This document shows, piece by piece, positions 3,203 through 63,129 of a stretch of DNA of 64,000 bases (position 1 is the stretch's first letter; each line of letters begins with the position of its first letter). Source of the DNA: Octopus vulgaris (taxonomy: Eukaryota); assembly GCA_951406725.2 (NCBI GenBank), contig OX597826.1, forward strand, positions 45,570,001 through 45,634,000, in the 5' to 3' direction. The notes under the pieces were generated by a model. The model worked only from the letters and a program-made list of their open reading frames with translations, had not been told where the DNA came from and searched no databases. The translations under genes were made by a program, and so were the position numbers.

Positions 3203-4244
3203 TTGGGTTTGCAAGAAGGTAATTTCGTTTTCGCAAATAGAGCTGCGATCTTTTTGAATGACTTTTGTCAATGCTATGATTTTTTCCCTTTTGACATTTG
3301 AAAGTTGTTACTGTTAGCTTACTTTAGAAGCAAATTCCGCGTAATTTTGTTTACAGCTGTTATTTCAGTGTCAATTTTATCATGGAGTGCAAAAACGAAC
3401 ATTTTCGCCATATTTTGTTTTTTTTTTATTTCCGGAAAGGCAAGAAAGCTTGTGAGGCTCACAAAAACATCTGTGAAGTTTATGGTGTTGATTGCATAAC
3501 AGAAGGCACATGTCAGAAATGGTTTTCCAAATTCCGTTCTGAAGATTTTTCACTCAAAGATGATCAACGTTCTGGTCGACCTACCGAAGTTGTTGATGAC
3601 CAAATCAAAGTCAAAATTGAATCTGATTGTCATATAACTGTGTGAGAGATTGCCGAGATGTTAACCACATCACACACATCAACTAAAATCACTTAAAATA
3701 CCTTGGACTCGTTAAGAAACTCGATATTTGGGTTCCGCGCAAATTGAAAGAGATTCACTTAATACAACGTATCGATATTTGCGATATGTGTCTCGAACGC
3801 AATGAAATCAACCTTTTTAAAAACCAATCATCCCTGGTGATCGAGAATGGATTATCTACAATAAAATCAATCGAAATCTATCATGGTCCAAGCGTAATGA
3901 ACTAGCAAAATCTGAATTGCATAAAAAAGGTCATGCTGTCAATTTGTGGGATTTACAAAGGTGCTGTGTATTTTCAGCTGCTTTGAAGGAACCAAACGAT
4001 CAATTTAGATGATTACTGTCAACAACTAATGAAACTGGAGGAAGCAATCAAAGAAAAACGGCGAGAATTGGCTAATAAGACCCAGAAGTTCTGTGAGCAC
4101 GGAATCAGGAAGTTGCCATAAAGATGGCAAAAGGTCATCGAACAAAATGGAAAATATATAATTGATTAACGTTCATTCTTTGTAAGAAGAAAAATGACTT
4201 TTACTTCACACTAAATACCCGAAATTACTTTCTTCCCAACCCAA
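3203..4244 (+). mobile_element. Mariner DNA transposon, internally deleted
   Basis: TIRs ttgggtttgcaagaaggtaatttcg / cgaaattactttcttcccaacccaa, flanked by TA. Confidence 0.9.
3382..4169 (+). pseudogene. Mariner transposase pseudogene
   Basis: MECKNEHFRHIL..WFSKFRS..RSGRP HTH region, WVPxxL-like motif, GDxxW catalytic start, KYIID* end; stops, frameshifts and a deletion. Confidence 0.9.
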
Positions 4245-11274: not shown

Positions 11275-12546
11275 AAGAGGGAGGCCGTGGACTTTTACAA
11301 CTAGCAATAACAATGAAGATTGCTACAATTGGCCTAGACACCTACCTGAAAAACTCTGAGGACTGGATGTTTAAACTTGTCTCAAAACATGAAAACAAGA
11401 AAGCATCATACTCAGTAACAAAACAGGCAAAGGAATATCTAAGTGAATTCCGAATACAACAAATTTCGGAATTAGAGATAGACATACAAGAAACAGGCAC
11501 AGAAAAAGCTAAGCGCATGAAAACCCGTGCTAAATCTGCGGCCTTAGCTATTCTGAATGATAAATGGCAAGAAAAACCTCTCTATGGCAAATACCCAAAG
11601 AGAGCAAATAATGCAGATGTTGACAAAGCCCAGACCCATCAATAGCTAATGGCCTCTGGCTTAAAATCTGAAACAGGGGGGGGGGTTATCATAGCAACTC
11701 AAGATCAATGCCTACCAACAAGAAACTACCAGGCCAACATATTAAAGATCAGAAGCAGTCCAACGTGTCGTGTATGCCAGCAACAAAATGAAACCATTGA
11801 CCATGTGGTCTCCAAGTGCAGTCTTCTAGCACCTACAGAGTATCACAACAGACACGATAGGGCTGCACAATATATTCACTGGGTAATCTGCAAAAACCTG
11901 GATTTGCCCCATGAAAAAAACTGGTGGGAACACAAACCACCCCCAGTGCTTGAAAAATGACCATATCTCACTCCTCTGGAACTTCACCATTCAAACTGAC
12001 AGAAAGATAGATGCAAATAGGCCAGACATCATATTGAAAGACTTCAAACAAAGAACATGCCTCCTCATTGATATGACTGTCCCAATCGATATAAACGTAT
12101 CTGTCAAGACCTACCAAAAACTGAGCAAATATAAAGATCTTGAAATAGAAATCAGCAAAATGTGGAACCTGAAGACTAAAACAATAACTGTTGTCATAGG
12201 TGCCCTGGGAATGATAGCAAAAGGGGCTGGTAGCTACCTAACTCAGATACCAGGAAACTCAAAAATGGCAGAAATTCAAAAGATAGTGCTCATGGGAACT
12301 GCTCATATCCTACGCAAAATACTTTCTATGTAATCTCAAGGTTTAAAACAAACATAATTTTCGGTTTTTAAAAAAATTTTTTTTTTAGACATTCATTAGT
12401 ACAACACCAAAAACTCCCCCCCCCCAAAAAAAAAATATGGCACACTAGGCATAACAACAACATGAACTTCCAACCTGTTGTCTCTTGAGGTCTCTGGGTG
12501 AGACTTGGAGCCAACTTGTACAAATATAAAGCAAAAGTCAAACATA

Positions 12547-35600: not shown

Positions 35601-37675
35601 TATATCTTGCCGCTTCCATTGCTAAAGAGCTCCTTTTGAATTCATACAGCATGCAGTTTCTGATATGGGTCTGGCCTAAACTCATTTTGAAAGGGTAAAT
35701 ATTAATACATATTTAACCACTATGGTAAGAAGAGAAATAACATTAGAATGTTAAAATTAATTCTTATTTTACCTTAATTATTGAAAACGTGCCTTCCAAG
35801 TGATCATGTCAAAACTGCGACAAGACTTTCTTTCCAATCAAATACTTTCGAGATTTTTGTATTTCGAATATCAGATTCGGAATCCTGAAATAAATAAATA
35901 AATAAATTCAATTTTTTTTTCTCTCTTTTTATTTTGGAACTGAAACGCTTTTCATCTAAAAATAAACATTATTAACGAATCTCAATCTAGTACTTTATCG
36001 ATGTATTTATATATTAATTACAATGAGATGAAGAACACGACAATTTTGTAATGTAATGGCCGTATTAGTTTTCGAAATAATGGAAGTATTTTGTAATTCA
36101 TTAATGAAAGCTTTCGTATTGTAATCTTTCACTTTCTGAAAACTTAAAAGGCTGTCGTTTCAATTTATTCAGGATTGAAATGTAATTTCCGAATGCAATC
36201 AAAACATATATCTGTACATCTCAAATGCAAAGAAATATATATGTATACAAAAAGCATATCTTATATTCGTAAATGCACACATATGGAAAATATAGAAGGC
36301 AGTTTTGAAATCTCCTAACTTTAATCACTATCTGTTTTTCTTTCTTTTGTAATATTTTGTTTCTTTTGTTTTATTTTTGTTTTCTTTACTAATTATTGCA
36401 GATTATGATCTCTGATGTTTAAAACATAAAAATTCGAAAGCCGATTGTGTATTTAAAAGCATAATAGTAAAACTCAGAGCGGCGGGAGGTTAAAATATCG
36501 ACTCTTAGACGTATAAGCACCAGACAAATGCCTTCCCGCAGATGTGGCATCCGGCCTATAGGCATAGCTGAAAGTAAGCTCACTTATCTGGTCACACGTG
36601 TGAAAGACCCATACTTCCGTTGTTTTTGTCGCTCGTTTGGGCGCATAAAAGGTGTAGTTTAAGCAGGAACATTCATAAATCTTTGGTTTCCTGGATGGTT
36701 ATATAATTTGTTGTTGATACACGTTATGAAAATTTATCAGTACGTAAGAGATATACCTTAATCATATTTAGCCACCTAAGGTGAAGAAGACGGAGAGTTA
36801 ATAGGGGAAAAAATCGACAATATATTCAGGGAAAATCTAGACGTCAATGAAAATCAACCGATCGGTGTCTCACTGAGAATTTTCAGCTCTGGAATTATAG
36901 ACAAATTGTAAAAATACGTGGTCGAGCAGTGAAACTAGACTCTAATAGTATGGCAGTGCCGTCAACTGATGCTGTTTGACAAACGCGCAGAACCTTGAAA
37001 CCAATGCCATAATTGCTGCTATACAGAAGCATGCCGAACAGCTGTTATCCCGTGAAATACGATTCTGGGTGTTAGCGGAGTCTATGATGAAAATAGCAAA
37101 GCCGCATTTCTTTGATTAGTAAGGGTGGATTAGCATTTATCTGTCAATCAGATGGCTTTGGCAAGAAGTGATAGTATGACAAATGACATTGAACTGACTA
37201 AAGAGAGGCACTTCTCTCTTCAACGAAGCCCACATCAACTCTTTAAAATAATACTGGAGGAGAAAAAGGTGAAGATAGAGAGGGAAGTACGTTTCTCCAA
37301 GAAATTTGTTGAAAGAGCGTGATGTAACGTGTATGGCCTGAGTGAATTAGCCTAGTCTTAACATATGGCAGTAAACTGGAAATTACAGGTAACAGAAAAA
37401 TATTTTTTTCTTTTGGTACTTAGGTTAATCTAAGATGTGCCGAAGTCCTTAGTCTACCTAGGTCGATGTCATTCTCATGGGACTAGTGTTATATTATAAA
37501 GGTTGCTTTTTCTTTTTTTTTTTTTTTCATTAGACTTTATTTTATTCTTCGGCGCGTCTATGTAACATCTATCACTGCTTCTTTGAATTTGCCCTCGTAA
37601 TGTCCGTCCGACCTTGTATTTAAAGTATTAATATTTATTTCAAATTTTGGTACAATTTCAGTAGAGAGGGTGAGT

Positions 37676-38190
37676 AACAAAATGTGTAAGACCGCCATCT
37701 TGCATAGAAATCAAAATCTTCAATATTCTCCCAAGTACTGATCACTGTCCAGATTTTATCTTGCAGCATGGTGAGGTACCTTTCAGCATGGTGAGGTACC
37801 TTTCAGCATTCTTGGTATTGCAAAGGATAAAAGGACTCACGATCCTGTCCGAAGTTATTCCACACAATAGAGTTACCTTGTACCAATTCTGCATTTTTTC
37901 AGAGGTAATACGAGGATCTTCTCCTGCCCAGTAGTGGCAATTGTGACAGTTCACAAACCCACCGATGTGCAATACTGCTTCATTACTCCAAAGGATATTT
38001 TCTAAGAGATCAAACTACGTTTGTAGTGCTTCTAAATTTCAAATAGTTAATCGATCTGAAAAAAACAACAACAACGTAGAATCAATGCCTATACATTAAA
38101 GAACATACACAACAAATTTGAGGAAAAAAATTATAGTTAATACATAAATTATAAGTATCTTAAAATAGGGAGTTACATTTCAATCACGCA

Positions 38191-38193
<3 letters not shown>
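37676..38193 (-). mobile_element. 5' half of a DD41D-type (rosa/Visitor-like) Tc1/mariner element
   Basis: TIR at ~38130-38193; WSNEAVLHIGGFVNCHNCHYW..YLTMLK..QDGGLTHF. Confidence 0.75.
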
Positions 38194-38259
<66 letters not shown>

Positions 38260-38261
<2 letters not shown>

Positions 38262-38412
38262 TTCAAATTCCGTCGAGGTCGACTTTGCCTTTTATCCTTT
38301 CGGGGTCGATAAATTAAGTACCAGTTGCGCACTGGGGTCGATGTAATCGACTTAATCCCTTTGTCTGTCCTTGTTTGACCCCTCTGTGTTTAGCCCTCTG
38401 TGGGTAGTAAAG

Positions 38413-38415
<3 letters not shown>
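38260..38415 (+). mobile_element. SINE family C body
   Basis: gttcaaattccgtcgaggtcgactttgcc...gggtagtaaagaaa. Confidence 0.85.
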
Positions 38416-38505
<90 letters not shown>

Positions 38506-38577
38506 GTTAGGAGAGAATGAGGCTAGTGTGCTCTGTTAAATGTCTTAAGTATTCATGATCGACTTCCTCCTAGTTTA

Positions 38578-38640
38578 TTGAGGGAGAAGTTAGGCATAAG
38601 AGGAATTAAATGCTGCGTACAAGAGAGAAGATTGCGCTGA
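38578..38640 (+). pseudogene. RTE-like LINE C-terminal fragment
   Basis: LREKLGIRGIKCCVQERRLR*, resembling the RRLRW motif. Confidence 0.5.
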
Positions 38641-39638
38641 TGCACATATATATTATCTATCTATCTATCTATCTATCTGTATTCTCTTTCTTAAAACTGG
38701 TGCGTATTTTAAATTGCATGTAAATTAGTATATTTGTAAATTACATGTATTAGTATATACTTACTATGTATATTATGCATATGTGTATACATATACCTTT
38801 ATATATCCATATACATATGGATACATATATATATGTATACATACACATGTATACATACACATGTATACATACACATGTATACATACATATATATATGTAA
38901 ATATACATACATGCATATATATATATACTCACACCAGCACACATACCTGTATGTATAGGTATCTATCTGTCTGTCTGTCTATCTCTCTCATTATCTATCT
39001 ATCTATCTATTTGTCTATCTATCTATCTCTATATATATAAACACACATATGTATATATGTATATATGTATGCATAGAGGTGCACAAATGTGAGTGTGTGT
39101 CTGTTTATACATACGTGTACATGTAAACTTGAATAAGTTCTGGGACACGCATCAGGATATTTTCGACGAATCATATAATTATACAGCAAAGAAAGTAAAT
39201 ATTTCTATCTCTATGTTAAACCAACAGCTAAATGACTCTATTATACATTTACAAAACACACTTAAATTTCACAAACTTCTCTTGAGATTGATGATTCACT
39301 GTTTCTGTCTAGAAAAAGCCAATTTTTTTCAATTTTTTTTTCACAATTCTGCATTGAGTTAAGACCGTGTTTTTTTTTGTTTCATTTCTTTTTTATGTTT
39401 TATGTCTTTTAAAAAAATTATTTGTTTAGTGTTTGTATTCCGTGTACTGATACCTTCTTTACAGTTATAATCAAGGAGAGTCGTAGTTATAATAACGACA
39501 CAAATATGTTAAGCTTTCGTGTTTGCTTGTCGCTTATGATGGTTTTTATAGCGTAGAATTCACCTTTAACGGGAAAGATAAGTACTACTTGTCTACCATT
39601 GAACCTGACCTGAAAACACAATAGCCTTATCCTCTTAA

Positions 39639-39678
<40 letters not shown>

Positions 39679-39851
39679 AGAGAAATTCACACCAACACGG
39701 AAATACACACACAAATACACGCACACATCATACACGGTCAAACACAATTATATATACAGCCGTGTATATACACATATACAATATTTACATGTAGGAAATT
39801 TTAAAAGGAAAATAATTTGGAATATAATATATGCAGGTGACACGTAACATT

Positions 39852-39882
<31 letters not shown>

Positions 39883-40092
39883 TTGCTAAAATTGCTTCCT
39901 ACAGAGTAAGATGGTCGGTCAAATAAGAAATACGCACACAGAGGCGTCATTTCTCAAGCGTATACAGAGATACACATATGTGTGTATGAACGTATACGTG
40001 CAAACCTGTACATGCATATACGCACACACGTAGACACACATACACTTATATATGTACGTATATATGTATGTATATATAAATATGTATATACG

Positions 40093-40124
<32 letters not shown>

Positions 40125-40170
40125 TATATATATATACATATGTATATATAGATACACAGTTGTGTATCTA

Positions 40171-40212
<42 letters not shown>

Positions 40213-40242
40213 TGTATATATCTATGCATGCGTAAGTATAAA

Positions 40243-40292
<50 letters not shown>

Positions 40293-40295
<3 letters not shown>

Positions 40296-40712
40296 TCTTT
40301 ACTCTTTTACTCTTTTACTTGTTTCAGTCATTTGACTGCGGCCATGCTGGAGCACCGCCTTTAGTCGAGCAAATCGACCCCGGGACTTATTCTTTGTAAG
40401 CCCAGTACTTATTCTATCGGTCTCTTTTGCCGAACCGCTAAGTGACGGCGACGTAAACACACCAACATCGGTTGTCAAGCAATGCTAGGGGGACAAACAC
40501 AGACACACAAACATACACACACACACACACACATATATATACATATATACGACGGGTTTCTTTCAGTTTCCGTCTACCAAATCCACTCAGAAGGCTTTGG
40601 TCGGCCCGAGGCTATAGTAGAAGACACTTGCCCAAGATGCCATGCAGTGGGACTGAACCCGGAACCATGTGGTTGGTAAGCAAGCTACTTACCACACAGC
40701 CACTCCTGCGCC
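40293..40712 (-). mobile_element. SINE family A, full length
   Basis: Reverse-complement similarity; (tactcttt)n tail. Confidence 0.9.
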
Positions 40713-40749
40713 TATATACTATCTACTATATGCACAAGGATGAATTATT

Positions 40750-41264
40750 GGGGTCGAGGGCTAGTCGATTACATTGGCCTCGGTGTTCCACTGGTATCTA
40801 TTTTATCAATCCTGAAATCATGACAGGCATAAGTCGACCTCCGCAAAATTTGAACTTAGAACGTAAAACCGGAAGAAAATGCCACTAAGTAGTTTGTCCG
40901 GTATGTTAACGATTTTGCCAGACCGGTCTTTTAATTGTTTACAATAATATTGGTTTCAAATCTTGACACAATGCCAGTAATTTCGTGGTAGGTGGTAAGT
41001 CGATTACGTAAACCCTAGTACTCAGCTGGTACTATTTTATAAGGCAAAGTCAGCTTCAGACGAATTTGAACTCAGTACGTAAAGATAGTCGAAATGCCAC
41101 TATGCATTTCGACCGGCGTGCTAAATATTCTGTCAGCTCTCTAGCTTCGCCTTAATATTAATATTAGTCTGAACATTTTAAATCCGCGGTCGACTTTGGC
41201 TTACATCATTTCGGGGTCGATAAAATAAGTGATAGTTGAGCACTGGGGTCGATATAATCGACTC
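40750..41264. mobile_element. Cluster of diverged SINE C copies (two minus, one plus truncated at 41264)
   Basis: Family C motifs. Confidence 0.7.
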
Positions 41265-41657
41265 CGTGAATGGCTATATGCCTATTGTCCTGGGAGATGG
41301 ATGGTTCGTCGAGGACCGTATGACTGGCCGGTTAGAAGACCTGATTTAGCACCCAGCGCATTTTTTCTTTAGGGTTGCTTAAAGGAGCATGTCTACTCTA
41401 CCAAACCAACGACTTGGAGGAACTTGACTGGCGAATACGAAAAGTTATGTCTTCCATCCCACAAAAGTTCCTGATGAAATCAGTTGATGCAGTTCCCGGG
41501 CGGTTTCAGAAGCTGATGGTGAATGCTGATGCCTATATCGAATTTTAGATAAAACTCCATGCTATACGCTTTCTTCACATACTCATTTTTTTTTAACACT
41601 TATAGTTAATAAAGAAATTATAAGTATTTTAAAATAGAAAGTTACTTTTCAACCACC

Positions 41658-41660
<3 letters not shown>
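41265..41660 (+). mobile_element. 3' half of the same DD41D-type element family
   Basis: REWL..PGRWMVRRGPYDWPVRRPDLAP..LKEHVY..IEF*; TIR ending ttttcaaccaccctg-TA matches the 38130-38193 TIR. Confidence 0.8.
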
Positions 41661-41749
<89 letters not shown>

Positions 41750-41751
<2 letters not shown>

Positions 41752-41902
41752 CTCTCCTTGTTTCTCACCTTGTTTTTTCTGTGTCCTTTTCTGTAGAAGA
41801 GCATAGGCTCGAAACGTATTAGACTTTTTCTATTCCTGAGCGTTATACTAATACATCTGTTTGTTTTGTACACCACCTGTCTTCGTCTTCTGTTTTTTTC
41901 GT

Positions 41903-41905
<3 letters not shown>
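41750..41905 (+). mobile_element. Penelope-like pseudo-LTR (P1-related) with variant hammerhead
   Basis: CTGTAGA-A-GAGC atag GCTC-GAAAC-GTA at 41791-41818, then the ttcctgagcg..taatac motif shared with P1. Confidence 0.6.
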
Positions 41906-41981
<76 letters not shown>

Positions 41982-43369
41982 TTCTGAGTGTGTGTGTGTG
42001 TGTGTGTGTATGGAGTGGTTATAAATTTGCGCATATGTGTGTGAACCTAGAAAGTTAATTCTATGTCGACTATTTTAAATTAACTATTTCCCGCAAGATG
42101 GCTTCATCTAACTGAATATAAAATGTATCGGCTTTTCTATTTGTTGATCTGTTTCTGAAAGTTTCATATCTAATCCCCTGTGACGGATAGCCTTATGCAT
42201 TTCTTTAAAGAGAACTTTCAGCGCCGCAAGACTTGATTAAGACAACGCAAAATTCTTTTCTATAGGGCCCTAGAAGCTTACCATTTTCATTTCTTATTTC
42301 TCTTTATAGACTACAAATCATTCGTAATTTATATGGACATTTTCAGTGAACATTTATGTCTTCTGAAATTTATGTTTCGTGTTATATATTATATGTATGT
42401 GGTGTCTTATTTTATACGCTTGTTTCGAATAATTATGCAAGAACTTTCTTACATAATTACTTAGGACATAAGTTTTAAACGCATTTCAGATTTCATAACA
42501 TCAACATTTAGATTTGTTTTTATTACCTATACTGACTAATCTACCCATCTACGATTGAGGCATAAAATGAAGGAGGGAAGTCATATCAGCAGTATGAGTT
42601 GAGAAATGTGTAAATGGGCTTGATAGATTACTGAATGATGTCTTAGAGAAATCACATTATTGTTGGTGATACAGCATTCTATAGCAGCTATATGGCATGT
42701 GTTTGCGCTTAAGTGACATGTGATGACGATTTACTCCCGAGCTGAAATAGGCTCCCAGCCTCTGTATCATGAATGGTTATATGGACCACTCCCAACGAAA
42801 GCCAGAGCTTCCTTCGACCACTACATAAAAAGCATTAAGAAAAAATGTTATTTAGATATACTTTTATTTTAATTGAATACACTATTTTACGCTTGTTTAT
42901 ACTCTTATATATTCAAACTTCATAAATTTCCTTATCTAAGTTATGAATCATATTCCTTTCGATAACATCAATATGATTACAAAACTTCTTTGTAGACGAT
43001 ATTTTCTCTTTGGTCGACGCTAATTTTCAAATTATTAGAGTTCATTGCTCTGCTCATAGCGACGTATAACTGGCCGTGTGTAAACATCGGTGTGGGTAAA
43101 AATAGACTTATACGATCTAAAGTCTAGCCCAGTGCCTTGTTTGCTGTGAATACGCGAGCGGTATCTTTCGGAATCTGCCCATCTATGATGGGAAACAAAA
43201 GGATAGTATCGCAAATCTAAACCCTCTAAATTCACGAACTATACGGTTGGAAATCCAGAGTTAATCCTCGTCGCCGGAATTTTAACAAAAAAAAAATCAA
43301 AGGTGATTTATTAATACAAAACTCAATATCGGTATTTGTTCACTTTATGGGCTTCAAAAAAGGAAATAA

Positions 43370-43700
43370 AAATTAAGGGTGAGTGGGTCTTCGGCAGAAT
43401 AGAGAGAGTTTCTGAGAAATGTTTCTTAGTGGAAGCACCTGATTGTTCTGAGCAGATTTTGACAGCTTTGATTCAACGATGGATTTTGACAGGGAGTCAC
43501 ATAGTAAGTGATAGCTGTCGATCATACCATAATATTGGGATTTTAAATGGTGGCGCATACACTCACGAGGTGATTGTACATGAGGAAAATATTAGAAACA
43601 TGTAGATGCGTGTTAAACGCAAGTCACGCTGTCGGTTTGGCACTTCAAGACGTTTGTTTGTTTCATATTTGCACGAATTTATATGGCGTAATTCAGTGGA
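43370..43700 (+). pseudogene. Merlin/IS1595-family transposase fragment
   Basis: GEWVFGRIER..KCFLV..LIQRWILTGSHIVSD..SY..H; then NM*MRVKRK..SYLHEFIWR. Confidence 0.8.
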
Positions 43701-49030: not shown

Positions 49031-49051
49031 TTATATATATATATATATATA

Positions 49052-50297
49052 CAGGGTGTCCCCAAAAAATGTATACACACTTTAGCAGCTGATAACTCAA
49101 TTGATATTTTTTATTTCCAGATGAAACCTATAGAATTTAATGATGGCAGTCAGATTAAGCTTTGAACAAAGAAAATTCATTCTAAAATGATACTGGAAGT
49201 GTGAAAATACAGTTGAAGTGCAAAAACAGTTGGGGAGGGAGTTTCAAACAGATCCACCAATGCAACTCCCTATCACTTGAATTAGAGATAAGTTTGAAGC
49301 TGATGGAACTGTTCAGAATGTCCACGATAAGCATTCCAGAAGACCCCGAACATCAACAACACCAACAAAGCAAGGAGTACTGGAAATGAATCACCAAAGT
49401 CCAAGAAAATCTGTGCGGCAAAGCGAGTCATGAGGTAGGTATTCCAAAATCATCTGTCCAATGCATTTTGAAGCATTGTCAATGGAAAAGTTACATTCCA
49501 AGATTAGTCCATGCTATTAATGATGATGATCCAGACAAAAGAGTGCAGCATTGCGAGTGGTACTTGGAACGATTTGTAGAAGCTGCACACTTTCCAACAA
49601 AGATTGTGTGGAGTGATGAAGCCACATTCAAATTAAATGGTTCAATTAACTGCCACAATTGCACCTACTGGGGTCCTGAGAATCTGCATGTTATGGTGAA
49701 ACACCATGTTAATTTGATATTTGTGTGGTGTGGTTTATCATGAAGAGGATTAATTGGACCATTCTTTTGTTATGCTACTGTGACTGGTCCCGTTTACTTG
49801 AACTTGTTGCAACAGTCTGTTATGCCAAGCATAAGAGAAGACTTTGAAGATGAGGAGTTTTATTTTCAGCAAGATGGGGCACCCTCACACTGCCATTGCT
49901 ATGTTAGATCCTTCCTTGATGAGATCTTGCTAAACAGGTGGATTGGATGAAGAGGTATGGTTGAATTCACCAGACCTCACACCACTAGACTTTTTTATGG
50001 GGATACCTTAAAGACAAATTCTACGCTATGAAACCTACAAGTCGCTGATTTGAGAGCAGCCATTGGACGAGAGTGTACACAAATACCAAACAAATTCTTT
50101 TGTGATATTTGTGATTCCATTCCTTTGTGTTGTCAGCAGTGCCTGGACCAAACCGGACATCAGTTTGAAAACAGGCATTGACAAAACAATAAAATAATGT
50201 CTGTAGATTCTATTTAAGTTTGAAAATGAAGTATCTTTTAATAAACAACTACTTTACAATTGTTTAAAGTGTGCATACAATTTTTTGGGACACCCTG
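49052..50297 (+). mobile_element. Near full-length DD41D-type Tc1/mariner transposon with decayed transposase
   Basis: TIRs cagggtgtccccaaaaaatgtatacacacttta / taaagtgtgcatacaattttttgggacaccctg with TA flanks; [27 protein letters not shown]. Confidence 0.9.
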
Positions 50298-52554
50298 TAT
50301 AAATACGTCAAGTCTCCATGCATTTTCCATCTATCACATTCACTAACAAGACATTTATCGGCCTGTGCATTTATGAGCTAAACCCGAAATCATGAGGTAA
50401 GGGAACGAATTTCTGAACTACACAGCCATAACCGCGCGAATACATTCTATATTATATCGCTGGTCTCAGTCGTTTGATGCGACCATGCTGGGGCATGACT
50501 GTCAGGGGCTTAGAGTCAAATTCATTAAGCCTAGTACTTTTCTTATTGATTAGTTTGTCAACACTCTAAGTTGATACAGGTAAAATCTTCCTTTGCGTAA
50601 AGAGATACCAATATGAATCAAAATTTTATTAGTTTCTTCTTCGATGCACCGATTTTCGATTCTACACCGATGTGCATATGTGTATATTCGTGTGTAAATC
50701 TCTGTGCGTCATACCGATAGCATACGAGAACTAGGTAGAAATGGCGAAGTTTTAATTCGAACACGCTACTTTAGTTAATCATTGTTTTCTGATATGCTAA
50801 AAAGAATACAACAAACATGTCAAACTGCTAACACGTAAAATAACGAACATTAATTGTGATATTAAATTGAAAGTCCTTGAGAAAAGCAGGCCTTATATAA
50901 ATAATACAAAACGATTGTCATTTATGCGTGGGTAATAAAACTCAGACAAAAAAAAAGCAAAAATAATTCCGTGAATTATCTACAAAATCTGAGCTTCTCA
51001 CCAAATGTCACAACATCGGGAAATTATTCTTTAAGTTCTGAAAATTCGCATCACTGTAGAATAAAACAGAGAAACATGAAATAAACAGTTTCACTCTCTT
51101 TGTTAATTGACAATACTTTTATATAGAACTTCACATCATTGCAAGATAACATTTTGGACACCGCCTTTGCTAATTGACTCATCTATTATTATTCCTCGAT
51201 CCAATTCAACACTTAAATACACCTAAATCAAACCACAAGTGTCCTTTCCGTTGATAATCTTACACCTAAGTCCTGTTGGAGAAACAGTAAGTGATTTATG
51301 CCCTTTATATCATCTTATGACAGGATTTATTGTCTTCCGTTCGGGATAAACATAATATAACTTCCATTTGGATGCCCCTTAAAATACTTATGTATATCAG
51401 TGGATGATGTAAACCAGTCATAGACAAACTGCAGCCCACATGACTTTCTGAATGGCACACCTGAAAAGAAATTACCTCGAATTTCTTTCGATGTGCAGGC
51501 CGCCCGATGAGGAGCCATGTTTCATGCGGCCAGCTTCTCAAAACAAGTTGCCCACATGTCCGATGTAGACTCAAATGCAAAATCAGTACTCTTCAAACAC
51601 AAATTATTTGCCAGAGGAAAAGCTTCTGCACAAAATTAGATATACATTTTTTTTGCCAATCTTGTCGGCTGAAATGCAGTACAGTAGTAAATAACCCGTT
51701 AGAAACCTGTGACCACTTACAGTAGTAAATAAAATGAACTAAAATACATTACACAAGTCCTTTGTACCACAATCCGCTGCGTATATTTTGTTTTTAAGGT
51801 TTTAAGAGAATTAAGAGAATTTAGCTGCTATACCTAGCAAGGCTAAGAGTCAGGTAAAAACTTCTTCATTGGCTGCTTGTGTTTCATGACTAAATGTGAA
51901 GTGTGAATTTATTTCAGAATACTTTGTTTATAGCAATTTGTTTATACTCTGGTATTTTTTTTTCTCTAATTGATGACAGTAGCACACATATTTGTTGCTA
52001 CCGCTTTCATGTTTTCACCTTCAACTTACAAACTTTTTAATTCTCGTAACATATTTTTTTTTAATGTACTCATCCTCCACATAATCAAACATAACTTGCT
52101 ATACCATTAATATTTTTTCCAATAGTCAACACAGTAAATTGGAACTAATGTAGTATTCATTTCATCTATTACCAATAAAACACTTGGCTAGAGAACTGAT
52201 TCGGTGATTGATCAAGCATCAAACGGATCCAATGCTAGCAAATATGTCTACACAACAACTTCCAAATAGTCAAACATTTACACAAAAAATTTTAGGCCTG
52301 CAATTCTTAGTTTGTATAAGTTTAACAAATACCATAAAACTCCAAACATAATACACTGCTATGTGCATATAATACGCTACCATTCATGATATGCTGCTGT
52401 GTATAAGACGCTAGCATGTATAACATACATCTATTTACGGGACCTAATTATCATATAAACTTTATAATATCATGTATATCATGCAACGAAGGGGAGATAA
52501 TCTACCAAAGTCCAAATTGTTAACTGATTTTAATATTTTATTACTTTATTGTTA

Positions 52555-52960
52555 AGGCGGCGAGCTAGGAGAATCGTTACCACGCCAGGCAAAATGTTTA
52601 AATTCCGCCGAGGTTGGCTTTACCTTTCATCCTTTCGGGGTCGATAAATTAAGTACCAGTGAAGTACTGGGGTCGATATGATCGACTACCTCCTTCCCCC
52701 AAATTTCAGGCCTTGCATCTATAGTAGAAAAGATAATTATTAAGGCGGTGTGCTGACAGAATCGTTAGCACGCCGGGCAAAATGTTCAGCAGCGTTTCGT
52801 CCGTATATACGTTCTGAGTTCAAATTTTACTGCGGTCGACTTTGTTTTTCATCTTATCGGGGGTCGATAAAATAAGTACTAGTTTGTGCTCTGGGGTCGA
52901 TGTAATCGTCTTATCCCTAGTCCAAAGTTTCAGGCCTTGTTCCTATTGTAGGAAGGGATA
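52555..52960 (+). mobile_element. Two tandem SINE C copies
   Basis: Heads aaggcgg at 52554 and 52742. Confidence 0.8.
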
Positions 52961-52994: not shown

Positions 52995-54655
52995 GGTGCA
53001 GGAATGGTTGTATGGTTAAGAAACTCCCTTTGCAACCACTTGGCTTCGGGTTCAATCCCACTGCATAAAATCCTTTAGCAGGAATTTTTTACTATACCAC
53101 CGGGTCGGTCAATACTTTGTGAGTGAATTTGATAGATAAAAGCTGTGTGGAAGCCGGTCGTATACAGGAGATGGACAAAATAATGGAAACACCTTAAATT
53201 TTCAAACAAATTTATTTTAATATGGGGTAGAACTGCCTTTGGCAGTAATTACAGCTTGAATTTTACGAGGCATAGACTCATACAAAGTTTGAATTGTTTC
53301 CCAAAAAATTTTGGTCCATTATTCGGCTAAAACAGTCTCCAGTTCTTGTAGTGATGATGGAAAAGGATATTGACTCCTTACTTGTTTTTCTAAAATGCAC
53401 CATAAATATCCAATAATATTGAGATCTGGGGACTGTGGTGGCCAGATGAGATGTTCAACTTCACTAGAATGTTCCTCGGGCCATTCAGTAACAACTTTAG
53501 CTATGTGAATTACTACATTTTCAACCAGAAAAAGTGCGATTCCCTCCGGAAACAGTTCTGCAACCATAGGATGAATTTGATCAGATAAAATGCTTAAATA
53601 GTCTTGACTATTTATTCTGCCATGAAGGGAAACTATTGAGCCGGTGGATTTTCAAGATATAGCCGCCCGCCCCACCTCAAATCATCACAGATCCTCGTTC
53701 TAACAGTTGGAAGAAGGCAGTCTGGGTCAAATGCTTCTTTTGGCTGTCTCCACACGTATACTCGGCGGGTGGTCGGGAATAAGGTAAAGGATGACGCGTC
53801 CGAGAAAATAATATTCTTCCACTGCTCTAGGGACCAATTCTGTAGGTTTTTACTCCACTCTAAACGCTTTGCAACGCTTGTTTTTGAAAGTAGTAGTTTT
53901 CTGATTGCATCTTTACGCAGCTCCCGGCGAGTAGTTTTTGTGGAAACTGGGTTCTTGAGGTGGTCATTAAGCTCTTCAGTAATTTTAGGAGATGTACTTT
54001 TGTGATCCTTTCTAACAATTCGCATAAGAGCCCAACGGCCCCCATCTGAAAGTTTTGGTTTTCTTCCGGAGTTTTGTTTCGACGAGGAGGTTTTTCCCTC
54101 TTTCTCAAAGGCTGTTATTACTTTCGAGAAAGTACTTGATACAGCAAACATTTCAGCTGTTTTCGTTATGCTAGCGCCTTCCATACGAGCATTAACCTCT
54201 TTGAAAGTCCGATAGAGCTGTCATTTTAATGAATTTTAATTGCCTTTTTTGATAATTGGAAAGAAACAGCAATTTTAGCAAAACATTAAGCAACACTAAT
54301 AATAAATCAAAAACAAAAAAATTAACAAGCTTTGATGGTTTTATAGATATTTCAAAATTATGATGCTATGATGCTAGGTGTTTCTATTATTTTGCTCAAC
54401 CCCTGTATATACATATATATGTGTGTGTGTGTTTCTTTTTGTTTGTACTTGTATCCACCAATGCACACTGACAAGCCAACCAGTGTTGGTTTGCTTACGC
54501 TCCCGTAACTTTGCGATACGGCAATACAATAAGTAATGAATACAATAAGTAATGAAAAACTAAAAATTAATATTAGGGCCAATTTGTTCGACTAAACCCT
54601 TCATAGAGGTTCACTCCCACTAGCACAGCCATAGTCCAATGATTGGAACAAATAA
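52995..54655 (+). mobile_element. Diverged SINE A split by a Tc1 insertion
   Basis: Head 52995-53160; tail 54420-54655. Confidence 0.65.
53165..54405 (-). mobile_element. Tc1-like (DD34E-type) transposon with decayed transposase
   Basis: TIRs caggagatggacaaaataatggaaacacct / aggtgtttctattattttgctcaacccctg; SGRKPKLS, WKNIIFSDAS, WPPQSPDLNII. Confidence 0.9.
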
Positions 54656-55877: not shown

Positions 55878-56317
55878 AGGCAGCGAGCTGGCAGAAACGT
55901 TTGCACGCTGGGCGAAATGCTTAGCGCTGTTTCGTCTGTCTTTACGTTCTGTGTTCAAATTCCACCAAGGTTGACTTTGCCTTTCATCCATTCGGTATCT
56001 ATAAATTAAGTACCAGTTGCGTACTGGAGTCGATCTAATCGACTGGCTTCTCTCCAAAAATTTCGAGCCTTGTGCCTAGAGTACAAAAGGATAATAATAG
56101 TAATGATTTCCAATTTTAGCTCAAGGCCAGCAAGTTCGGAGGAGGGAGTATGTCGATTACATCGACCCAAGTATTCAACTGGTACTTACTTTATCAACTC
56201 CGAAAGGATGAAAGGCAAAGTCGACCTCGGCAGAATTTGAACGCGGAACATAAACACGGACGAAAGGCTGCTAAGTATTTTGCCCAGTTTGTTAACGATT
56301 CTGCAAACTCGCTGCCC

Positions 56318-56356
<39 letters not shown>

Positions 56357-56460
56357 TTCTAATGTTGGCACCAGGCCTGAAAATTTGGGTTAATTCGATT
56401 ACATCAAGCCCAGTACTCAAATGGTACTTATTTAATCGATTCCGAAAAGATAAGGGCAAA
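55878..56460. mobile_element. Cluster of SINE C copies (plus, minus, minus partial)
   Basis: Family C motifs; first two are tail-to-tail. Confidence 0.8.
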
Positions 56461-56479: not shown

Positions 56480-57465
56480 AGAACTGGTCTAATGCCATTC
56501 TCGTTGCTAACACGTCGGTTGTAATGCCTCGTCTATTTTAGCTACTAATCCATCCTCTTTTCTATTTTTTTCTAACGCTATTTCTTTGCTAAACCCTATC
56601 GACATTACTCTAATCTCTCTTTTGAGAGCCGCCCACCAGCTGTCGTTGACGACACCCCCTGTCAACTTCTGCTTAACTAAATTGCTGACCCGGTCCCTAA
56701 ATGTCTTACGTGCCGGAAACGACATATTCAGCTTCCAGGGACCTAGTCTACGCGCCTTATCTAGGTCGACCTTATCTAAGTCGACCGTACAGATTACAAA
56801 TTTATGGTCTGAATAGGCGACCGTTTTAAAAAGTGGACACCCTACACTATTATTATCTATTTTTCTGGTGAAAATCCTATCTATATACGATCTAGATGAC
56901 CCTAAGCGGTTGATTTAGGTCCACACTGGCGCATTAGCGAAATCTTGTCGGTACATGTCAGACAGCTGGAACTGGCTGATCAGATGCTTGAGGCTTTTGC
57001 ACCTATCAGCTACTCCCACACAATCCCAACGTTGATCTAAGATCCCGTTCCAATCCCCTACAAACAGTAAAGGGCGAGATGTACCTAGTAAGGCTTCCAG
57101 ACGCCTAAATAAATCTGACCGTTTGGCTCCGGTTGGAGCGTAGATGGTCACCAGTCTAAAGGCATTACCTTGCTCACGTCCAAAACCACCAACCTCCCGT
57201 CCAGGTCCCGGAAGATCGACTTTACCTCAAGATCCAGTTCTTTCCTTAACAGCACTGCCACTCCACCTCCCATTCCCGGACTAACAGATGCAAAGACCTG
57301 ATAGTCGTCGAACTTGGGGGCCAGTGCGCGTGTATTAGAAATCCTGGTTTCACTGACAGCAATTATACCTAATTCTAGAGACCTAAGGTCGTTGAGCAGG
57401 CGTCCCTGCTTCAAGGGTGACCCCAGACCTCGCACATTTAAAAATCCTACTCTTAGTATGGCCAT
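56480..57465 (-). pseudogene. Tx1/L1-like LINE ORF2 APE endonuclease region, truncated before RT
   Basis: FLNVRGL, VSETR, DGRLVVLD, IYAP, VGDWN, SYIDRIF, SDHK, WKLN. Confidence 0.88.
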
Positions 57466-62039: not shown

Positions 62040-63025
62040 CTTTATACTCTAGGCACAAGGCCCGAAATTTTGGGAGAATGGGGCCAATCGATTAGATCGA
62101 CCCCAGTTCGCAAATGGTACTTAATTTGTCGACTCCGGAAGGATGAAAGGCAAAGTCGAACTCAGCAGAATATGAACTCGACAGACGAAATACCTATTTC
62201 TTTACAATACCTATTGTTTTACAAGGGGCTAAACACAGGGAGGACAAACAAGGACAGACAAACGGATTAAGTCGATTGCATCGAACCCAGCGCGTAACTG
62301 GTACTTATTTAATCGACCCCGAAAGGATGAAAGGCAAAGTCGACCTCGGCGGAATTTGAACTCAGAACGTAGCGGCAGACGAAATACCTATTTCTTTGCT
62401 ACCCACAAGGGGCTAAACACAGAGAGGACAAACAAGGACATACAAACGGATTAAGTCGATTATATCGACTCCAGTGCACAACTGGTAATTAATTTATCGA
62501 CCCCGAAAGGATGAAAGGCAAAGTCGACCACGGCGGAATTTGAACTCAGAACGTAACGACAGACGAAGTACGGCTAAGCATTTCGCCCGGCAGGCTAACG
62601 TTTCTGCCAGCTCGCCGCCATTAAAAAAGGATTGAATGTTCTTTTCTACACTAGGCACAAGGCCCGAAATTTTGGGGGAGGGGGCCAGTCGATTAGATCA
62701 ACCCCGGTATGCAACTGGTACTTAATTTATTGACTCCGAAAGGATGAAAGGCAAAGTGGACCTCGACTGAATATGAACTCAGAACATAAAGACAGACGAA
62801 ATACCTATTTCTTTACTACCCTCAAGCGGCTAAACACAAAGAGGACAAACAAGGACAGACAAACGGATTGAGTCGATTATATCGATCCCAGTTCGTAACT
62901 GGTACTTATTTAATCGACCTCGAAAGGATGAAAGGCAAAGTCGACCACGGTGGAATTTGAACTCAGAACGTAACGGCAGACGAAATACCGCTAAGCATTT
63001 CGCCTAGCGTGATAACGTTTCTACC
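62040..63025 (-). mobile_element. Concatemeric SINE C array (two heads, five bodies)
   Basis: Repeated ~200-bp units with junctions at 62192, 62386 and 62803. Confidence 0.88.
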
Positions 63026-63129
63026 ATCCTCGTCGCTCATTCTTGCTACACCACACGTCGTCCTTCTTGTAATAGCTTGCTTTCTCAGCGACTTCCGAAA
63101 GTTTTCAGAACATATTTTGACTCCTTCGC

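Follow-up and report, generated by a model that had tools for sequence, protein, structure and literature searches.

How a 3.6-kb segment of octopus DNA came to separate the halves of two unrelated repeats is the question raised by a 64,000-nucleotide stretch of the Octopus vulgaris genome (assembly GCA_951406725.2, contig OX597826.1, positions 45,570,001 to 45,634,000 of the forward strand; hereafter the window, numbered from its first letter). At one end of the segment a short interspersed element (SINE) is interrupted and at the other a decayed Tc1/mariner transposon of the DD41D family, and the remainder of each is found at the opposite end. The segment lies in the orientation opposite to that of its flanks and is bounded by two reciprocal junctions, as in a simple inversion. 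This inversion is a real event, ordinary and common in kind, and cleanly readable. It was probably a single non-homologous inversion in the germ line, later than the insertion and the decay of both elements. The parts from which the event can be read are as follows.

37676..41260, minus strand: the inverted segment, 3585 bp (37672-41264 when the tetramer at both ends is included), with reciprocal junctions in two different repeats.
37622..37675, minus strand: the SINE tail (its 3' end), which stayed outside the inverted segment; recognized from paralog depth, a loose-end consensus and window copies, with a BLAST match to the copy at 40945 (E=0.003).
37672..37675, plus strand: GAGT, the left copy of the tetramer, a SINE sequence (AGT precedes the core in 12 of the 17 SINE copies found in the window, the broken copy included).
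37676..38193, minus strand: 5' half of the internally deleted, dead DD41D-family copy; the terminal inverted repeat (TIR), then the catalytic region from about residue 150 to residue 253 of the related protein P0007.
38194..38260, no strand: (TA)n array adjoining the 5' end of the transposon, recognized from sequence.
41177..41260, plus strand: body of the SINE, ending in a hairpin (perfect 6-bp stem and 3-nt loop, 41248-41262) that has two bases in common with the tetramer.
41261..41264, plus strand: ACTC, the right copy of the tetramer and the reverse complement of 37672-37675.
41265..41660, plus strand: 3' half of the transposon, interrupted by one stop and by one frameshift and corresponding to residues 258-351 of P0007; the 3' TIR and then (TA)n follow.

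The two transposon pieces belong to one family. The minus-strand frame of the 5' half closes with QDGGLTHFV at 37676 and the plus-strand frame of the 3' half opens with REWL at 41265, exactly as a preliminary description of the locus had it. Neither different subfamilies nor overlap was found: on P0007 the 5' half runs to residue 253 and the 3' half starts at residue 258, and both are nearer to the same relatives (55/76, 33/48 and 29/44 with P0007 versus 30/75, 26/45 and 9/35 with P0089). The TIRs that had been described as matching (38131-38187 and 41600-41656) are 87.7% identical over 57 bp. They now stand as direct repeats, as would be expected had one half been flipped. The pair is identical at 47 of 53 positions and (TA)n is present at both ends of the element, the TIR and TA flanks by which DD41D elements are recognized. 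The copy is dead. About 180 nt from its end the 5' half already matches residue 150 of the 351-aa P0007, indicative of an internal deletion; it carries a 20-bp tandem duplication near 37762-37803, where contigs of three sequencing runs begin or end, and a 1-nt insertion near 37713-37717. Of its catalytic positions, the first D is N and the third is A.

The SINE can be followed across the same two junctions. Within the 35-50 nt left of 37675 lies the end of a high-copy SINE, over which the summed contig depth of run X1 rises from 66.6 to 3736. In all four sequencing runs compared, paralogous contigs lead from this end into the core that is found reverse-complemented at 41260, bearing out the proposal that the left tail continues into the SINE truncated there. 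When the segment is re-inverted in silico, the SINE is in register and gap-free at the join with respect to window copies; the tail has one 9-nt deletion, 12-21 nt off the junction. The SINE was present before the break. A match of subtype between its two parts, clean by eye (4/4 versus 0/11), failed an automated test and is not used as evidence; the score of the tail was 18 for type 2 and 14 for type 3, a level reached by 12% of 2000 random 45-mers, and the diagnostic bases occur as well in two copies assigned to type 2. The sole part of that test that stands is the exclusion of tail type 1 for the broken SINE (0/6).

Sequencing runs show that the rearrangement is inherited. Of 24 runs listed, 12 contain the stretch or part of it, and four of these, one per organism label, were compared over 36800-38190. 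This comparison concerns the left junction; a further 1076 pieces exist beyond those listed, and contigs prove presence, not absence. The boundary 37675/37676 is crossed by contigs of X1 (record 1, 36800-37737), X11 (record 9, 36800-37742) and X2 (record 26, 37538-37742), each extending at least 62 letters past the junction on its short side. Because contigs of three of the four runs cross it, the left junction cannot be put down to this assembly, and the event is inherited. The three runs carry three organism labels and come from three studies. Their bridging contigs differ from the window by 0.2% (X1), 1.2% (X11) and 1.5% (X2), and X2 and X11 have common substitutions and a 14-bp deletion relative to the window, so that the inverted left junction is inherited across the diverged lineages behind the three labels. 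The fourth run, X12 (∼2% diverged), has zero cover at 37552-37598 and no piece over the left junction among those listed, and is uninformative on orientation. No loose end at 37675/37676 was found among the 24 listed (there are 238 further). Together with the abutting halves of one transposon, these contigs sustain the order of events put forward in the preliminary description, in which the inversion came after both insertions.

It is at the junctions themselves that the picture departs from what had been proposed. GAGT at 37672-37675 and ACTC at 41261-41264 are where they were described, and they had been taken as a shared 4-bp microhomology that mediated the inversion, with re-inversion restoring both elements. 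The SINE is indeed restored; the transposon comes out frameshifted and 5 nt short at the join, relative to both P0007 and L002, a same-family DNA copy from a metagenome scan (seven loci from 37 candidates). L002 aligns to the re-inverted element at 343 of 438 positions (78%). It continues over the breakpoint without a break, and the window side has a 5-nt gap exactly at the join. ACTC is absent from L002 at the breakpoint, where its 9-mer agrees with the tetramer at two of four bases when left-aligned (the first and third) and at one of four when right-aligned (the third). The tetramer is therefore native to the SINE but not to the transposon site in this single DNA relative, and the mediating role assigned to it is not supported in the form proposed. 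Protein relatives point the same way on length. Among 169 proteins, 64 contain a QDG-like motif, and in 31 the spacer between the His and Arg residues was scorable; it is five residues in 30 of the 31 and four in one, and the second DD41D-like copy in the window has a five-residue spacer too. Paralogs in the host match L002 as far as the His codon, where the compared sequence ends. Against P0007, the split copy has four frame shifts in 621 nt, namely +20, +1, -5 at the join, and -1, and the chance of one of the three other indels falling within 10 nt of the join is ∼0.05.

The reading of GAGT/ACTC that best fits these alignments is that both junctions preserve a tetramer belonging to the SINE, which would make it an inverted duplication of at most 4 bp. 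The simplest reading of the transposon side is that it lost 6-9 nt at its breakpoint, leaving it a net 5 nt short, and true microhomology is best read as only 0-2 nt. There are two breakpoints 3.6 kb apart, one in the SINE and one in the middle of the dead DD41D transposon, and their ends were rejoined crosswise. The SINE break may have been staggered by up to 4 nt, or the stretch may have been copied twice in two template switches; either would leave the tetramer as an inverted duplication. The transposon break would have been trimmed, with the loss of 6-9 nt. The left join may have used 1 nt of microhomology (or 3 nt, imperfect because of a G-T wobble) and the right join 0-2 nt, and joining would have been by end joining or by template switching. 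Fold-back synthesis from the hairpin was considered as a source of the right tetramer and rejected, as it would add bases of the C-run. On the whole of this reading, both elements were probably bystanders that recorded the event.

Several observations weigh against this reconstruction or limit its detail. The uninverted allele was not found in any of the four runs, among the pieces listed. L002 is the only DNA relative across the site, a single copy in a GC-rich flank unlike the window, and serves as a proxy both for the consensus of the host lineage and for the ancestral bases of this copy. The breakpoint lies in a GTT-rich, indel-prone run where P0018 has a 3-nt loss of its own. Staggered breakage and template switching are, moreover, indistinguishable from sequence alone.

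The slippage-prone nature of that site lends something to the view that the tetramer is, after all, a true 4-bp inverted microhomology through which a reciprocal exchange took place without loss, the transposon copy having earlier lost 5 nt and changed one or two bases there. The same 4 bp are identical at both junctions, and the split copy has three other indels in its 621 nt. Such an exchange would nevertheless require that the copy had already undergone, independently and at precisely this point, a 5-nt deletion together with substitutions, a coincidence of indels put at ∼0.05 before the substitutions are counted; L002 has no ACTC at the site and the five-residue spacer is kept in 30 of 31 relatives, making this an unlikely account. 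A related possibility is that the break was blunt, fell within the SINE tetramer and produced little true duplication or none, the transposon copy having supplied part of the tetramer on each side through a transition in an Ile codon and a Val codon ending in C, with joins at 1-3 nt of microhomology and a loss of 4-6 nt. Both changes are single transitions in a copy ∼20% diverged from L002, and the net change in length (-5) is the same, but two particular bases that are not in L002 are required, and we regard a blunt break as decidedly unlikely.

Mobile elements at both breakpoints bring to mind an ectopic exchange between repeat copies, or a rearrangement caused by the transposase of the element. 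The breakpoints lie in unrelated elements, however, and self-BLAST found no homologous inverted repeats there, the substrate that non-allelic homologous recombination uses; the transposon break is ∼0.4-0.5 kb inside the element rather than at a TIR end, and the copy is dead. Either route is highly improbable, and recombination between SINE copies was not the mechanism. That the inversion was created by assembly is so improbable as to be nearly negligible. The region is rich in repeats, with long (TA)n arrays within the segment, and an assembly artefact had been named in the preliminary description as something that would refute the inversion; at the left junction, where read contigs were examined, the bridging in three of four runs speaks against it. 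Against an artefact stand the provenance of those contigs, from three studies and in two cases 1.2-1.5% divergent from the window, and the exact reciprocity of the junctions.

Within the preferred explanation, a crosswise rejoining of two breaks, the SINE could have been cut by topoisomerase II (Top2), leaving a 4-nt 5' overhang that was filled in and joined by non-homologous end joining (NHEJ), perhaps drawn there by the SINE hairpin. Among the duplications that Top2 induces in yeast and that depend on NHEJ, those of 4 bp form the largest class (bioRxiv 10.1101/2020.05.03.075358), and in the re-inverted sequence the SINE break adjoins the perfect 6-bp stem with its 3-nt loop. Hairpins of this kind make up 8.2% of the window, or 0.75-1.6% once a GC filter is applied (at a stem of 7 the hairpin of the broken SINE is not scored), its folding has a z of -3.1 versus shuffles, and 6% of 3000 random 41-mers fold as well. 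The hairpin is a weak, post hoc hint, as the thresholds were set after it was seen. This is one event, the geometry is off by 2-3 nt (a cut with a 5' overhang is expected 2 nt inside the 3' end of the stem, and the break sits 1 nt beyond it), the transposon break has no 4-nt duplication, and the stem is kept in only two of the four other copies folded. Cutting by topoisomerase II is thus an unlikely special case. The broader notion that the core/tail hairpin of this very abundant SINE is a recurrent fragile site for 4-nt staggered cuts of the topoisomerase II type is very unlikely; if true, small inversions would arise across octopus-like genomes from breakage at the SINE and not from recombination between its copies, and the debated connection of SINEs with genome reshuffling in coleoids would have a direct mechanism. 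The yeast duplications have the same 4-bp length as the tetramer, which is compatible with fill-in and NHEJ; they are direct and arise from one resealed break, whereas the octopus duplication is inverted and belongs to a two-break event in which the enzyme is not evidenced.

The SINE family has features of its own. At least two, perhaps three, different tails occur on one SINE core (18607, 38349, 52684, 56154, 62089-62874 and others), joined about where the inversion broke, and in some copies the core has a short hairpin at the position of the tail join. SINE clusters lie at 52600-52950, 55880-56450 and 62040-63030, with close-set copies, some in opposite orientation. The SINE is left unnamed here ('SINE C' is a label that the preliminary description gave it). 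No Rfam or tRNA match was found in the window, and PMC4758252 names OR2 in passages that give no sequence.

The nearest described counterparts of the transposon are the rosa elements (PMC5490172), in which the second and third Asp are 41 residues apart, the defining motif of rosa/DD41D. This spacing was found in five of the seven close relatives examined. The octopus copy resembles rosa in its TA flanks and in close relatives of ∼351 aa with the 41-residue spacing, and in being an internally deleted derivative of ∼0.9 kb. Its TIR similarity spans ∼55-60 bp, compared with 27-32 bp in aphid rosa and more than 460 bp in LTIR, and the copy is dead and split. Pfam returned nothing meaningful for the three transposase pieces of the window, and for four relatives a DDE_3 match in one, below threshold. 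Searches with the 5' piece gave 22 relatives in one case and 1146 at E≤0.001 in another; none was found with the 3' piece. The TIR of the split copy agrees with that of L002 at 54 of 62 positions. Loci from a pattern scan of viral (10) and prokaryote (120) collections were dismissed as chance, and BLASTN of the element against 137 loci matched L002 only. The same family is seen in L002, whose 78% DNA identity occurs on a GC-rich contig unlike the window, and in P0020, a mantis shrimp protein with 87% identity over part of the query; horizontal spread of the family is possible on these similarities. The second DD41D-like copy of the window, nearly full-length and from a different subfamily, lies at 49049-50298 (plus strand), with intact TIR ends (36 bp, 92%) in a TA context and ∼32% protein identity to the split copy. 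P0022, annotated as Octopus vulgaris LRIG3 isoform X2, starts with a piece of this DD41D transposase (residues 1-63; 74% to residues 2-47 of P0001), which is either an exonised fragment or a gene-model artefact.

What the inversion carried is repeat-rich DNA, in a window that is AT-rich (27-44% GC per 2 kb) and crowded with decayed transposons, SINE-like repeats and microsatellites. The remaining features of the segment are these.

38258..41142, no strand: passenger DNA with SINE fragments at 38258-38412, 40722-40921 and 40943-41142, and microsatellites.
40300-40715, within the passenger DNA: a SINE-like repeat that is younger and belongs to a different family; near-full-length copies in the window match it at 79-93% identity.

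No host exon was recognized in or beside the segment among 73 open reading frames (ORFs) of at least 45 aa in 36400-43400, 10 of which were scanned with Pfam, although short exons could escape. Those 10, scanned together with five ORFs from elsewhere in the window, gave one match, a transposase outside the segment. Elsewhere, Pfam placed a Mos1-type helix-turn-helix (HTH) at 3328-3645 (plus strand), a Tc1/Tc3-type transposase HTH at 53319-54220 (minus strand) and, below the curated cut-off, an ISXO2-like transposase at 43315-43605 (plus strand) and a long interspersed element (LINE) endonuclease at 56915-57226 (minus strand). The stretch at 11300-12333 (plus strand) has no Pfam match and resembles what we take to be a LINE 3' end.

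The footprint is the known one of non-homologous inversions, that of a staggered break with end joining or of two template switches. Giner-Delgado et al. (2019, PMC6748972) report small deletions or insertions in 18 of the 21 non-homologous inversions of humans, and of sequenced inversions only 20% are simple and 14% are classed as 'Inv and Del' (Sudmant et al. 2015, PMC4617611). The octopus case is like the human ones in its kilobase size, the lack of inverted repeats at the breakpoints and a small deletion in the derived allele, the indel at the derived junctions being seen here against family relatives as a proxy for the ancestral allele. It differs in lying in another phylum, in having its ancestral state drawn from repeat relatives and not from an outgroup genome, and in that the inversion appears common to diverged lineages rather than shown to be polymorphic. 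Inverted end duplications are ascribed to staggered breaks in Drosophila under isochromatid and chromatid models, and repair alone can leave the same marks (PMC7584159); the duplications there are 58 and 534 nt in O7, compared with at most 4 bp around a 3.6-kb segment here.

A literature search on octopus inversion breakpoints, from which subscription literature was mostly outside coverage, found no paper on this locus, and for coleoids breakpoint analysis is described as still lacking (PMC12988792). One 3.6-kb event does not settle the question of SINEs and genome reshuffling in coleoids. As a single event without visible function, its value is methodological. The junction could be used as a presence/absence marker among closely related species, and pairs of split repeats like this one can be collected genome-wide from one assembly, which would make the link between SINEs and reshuffling testable.

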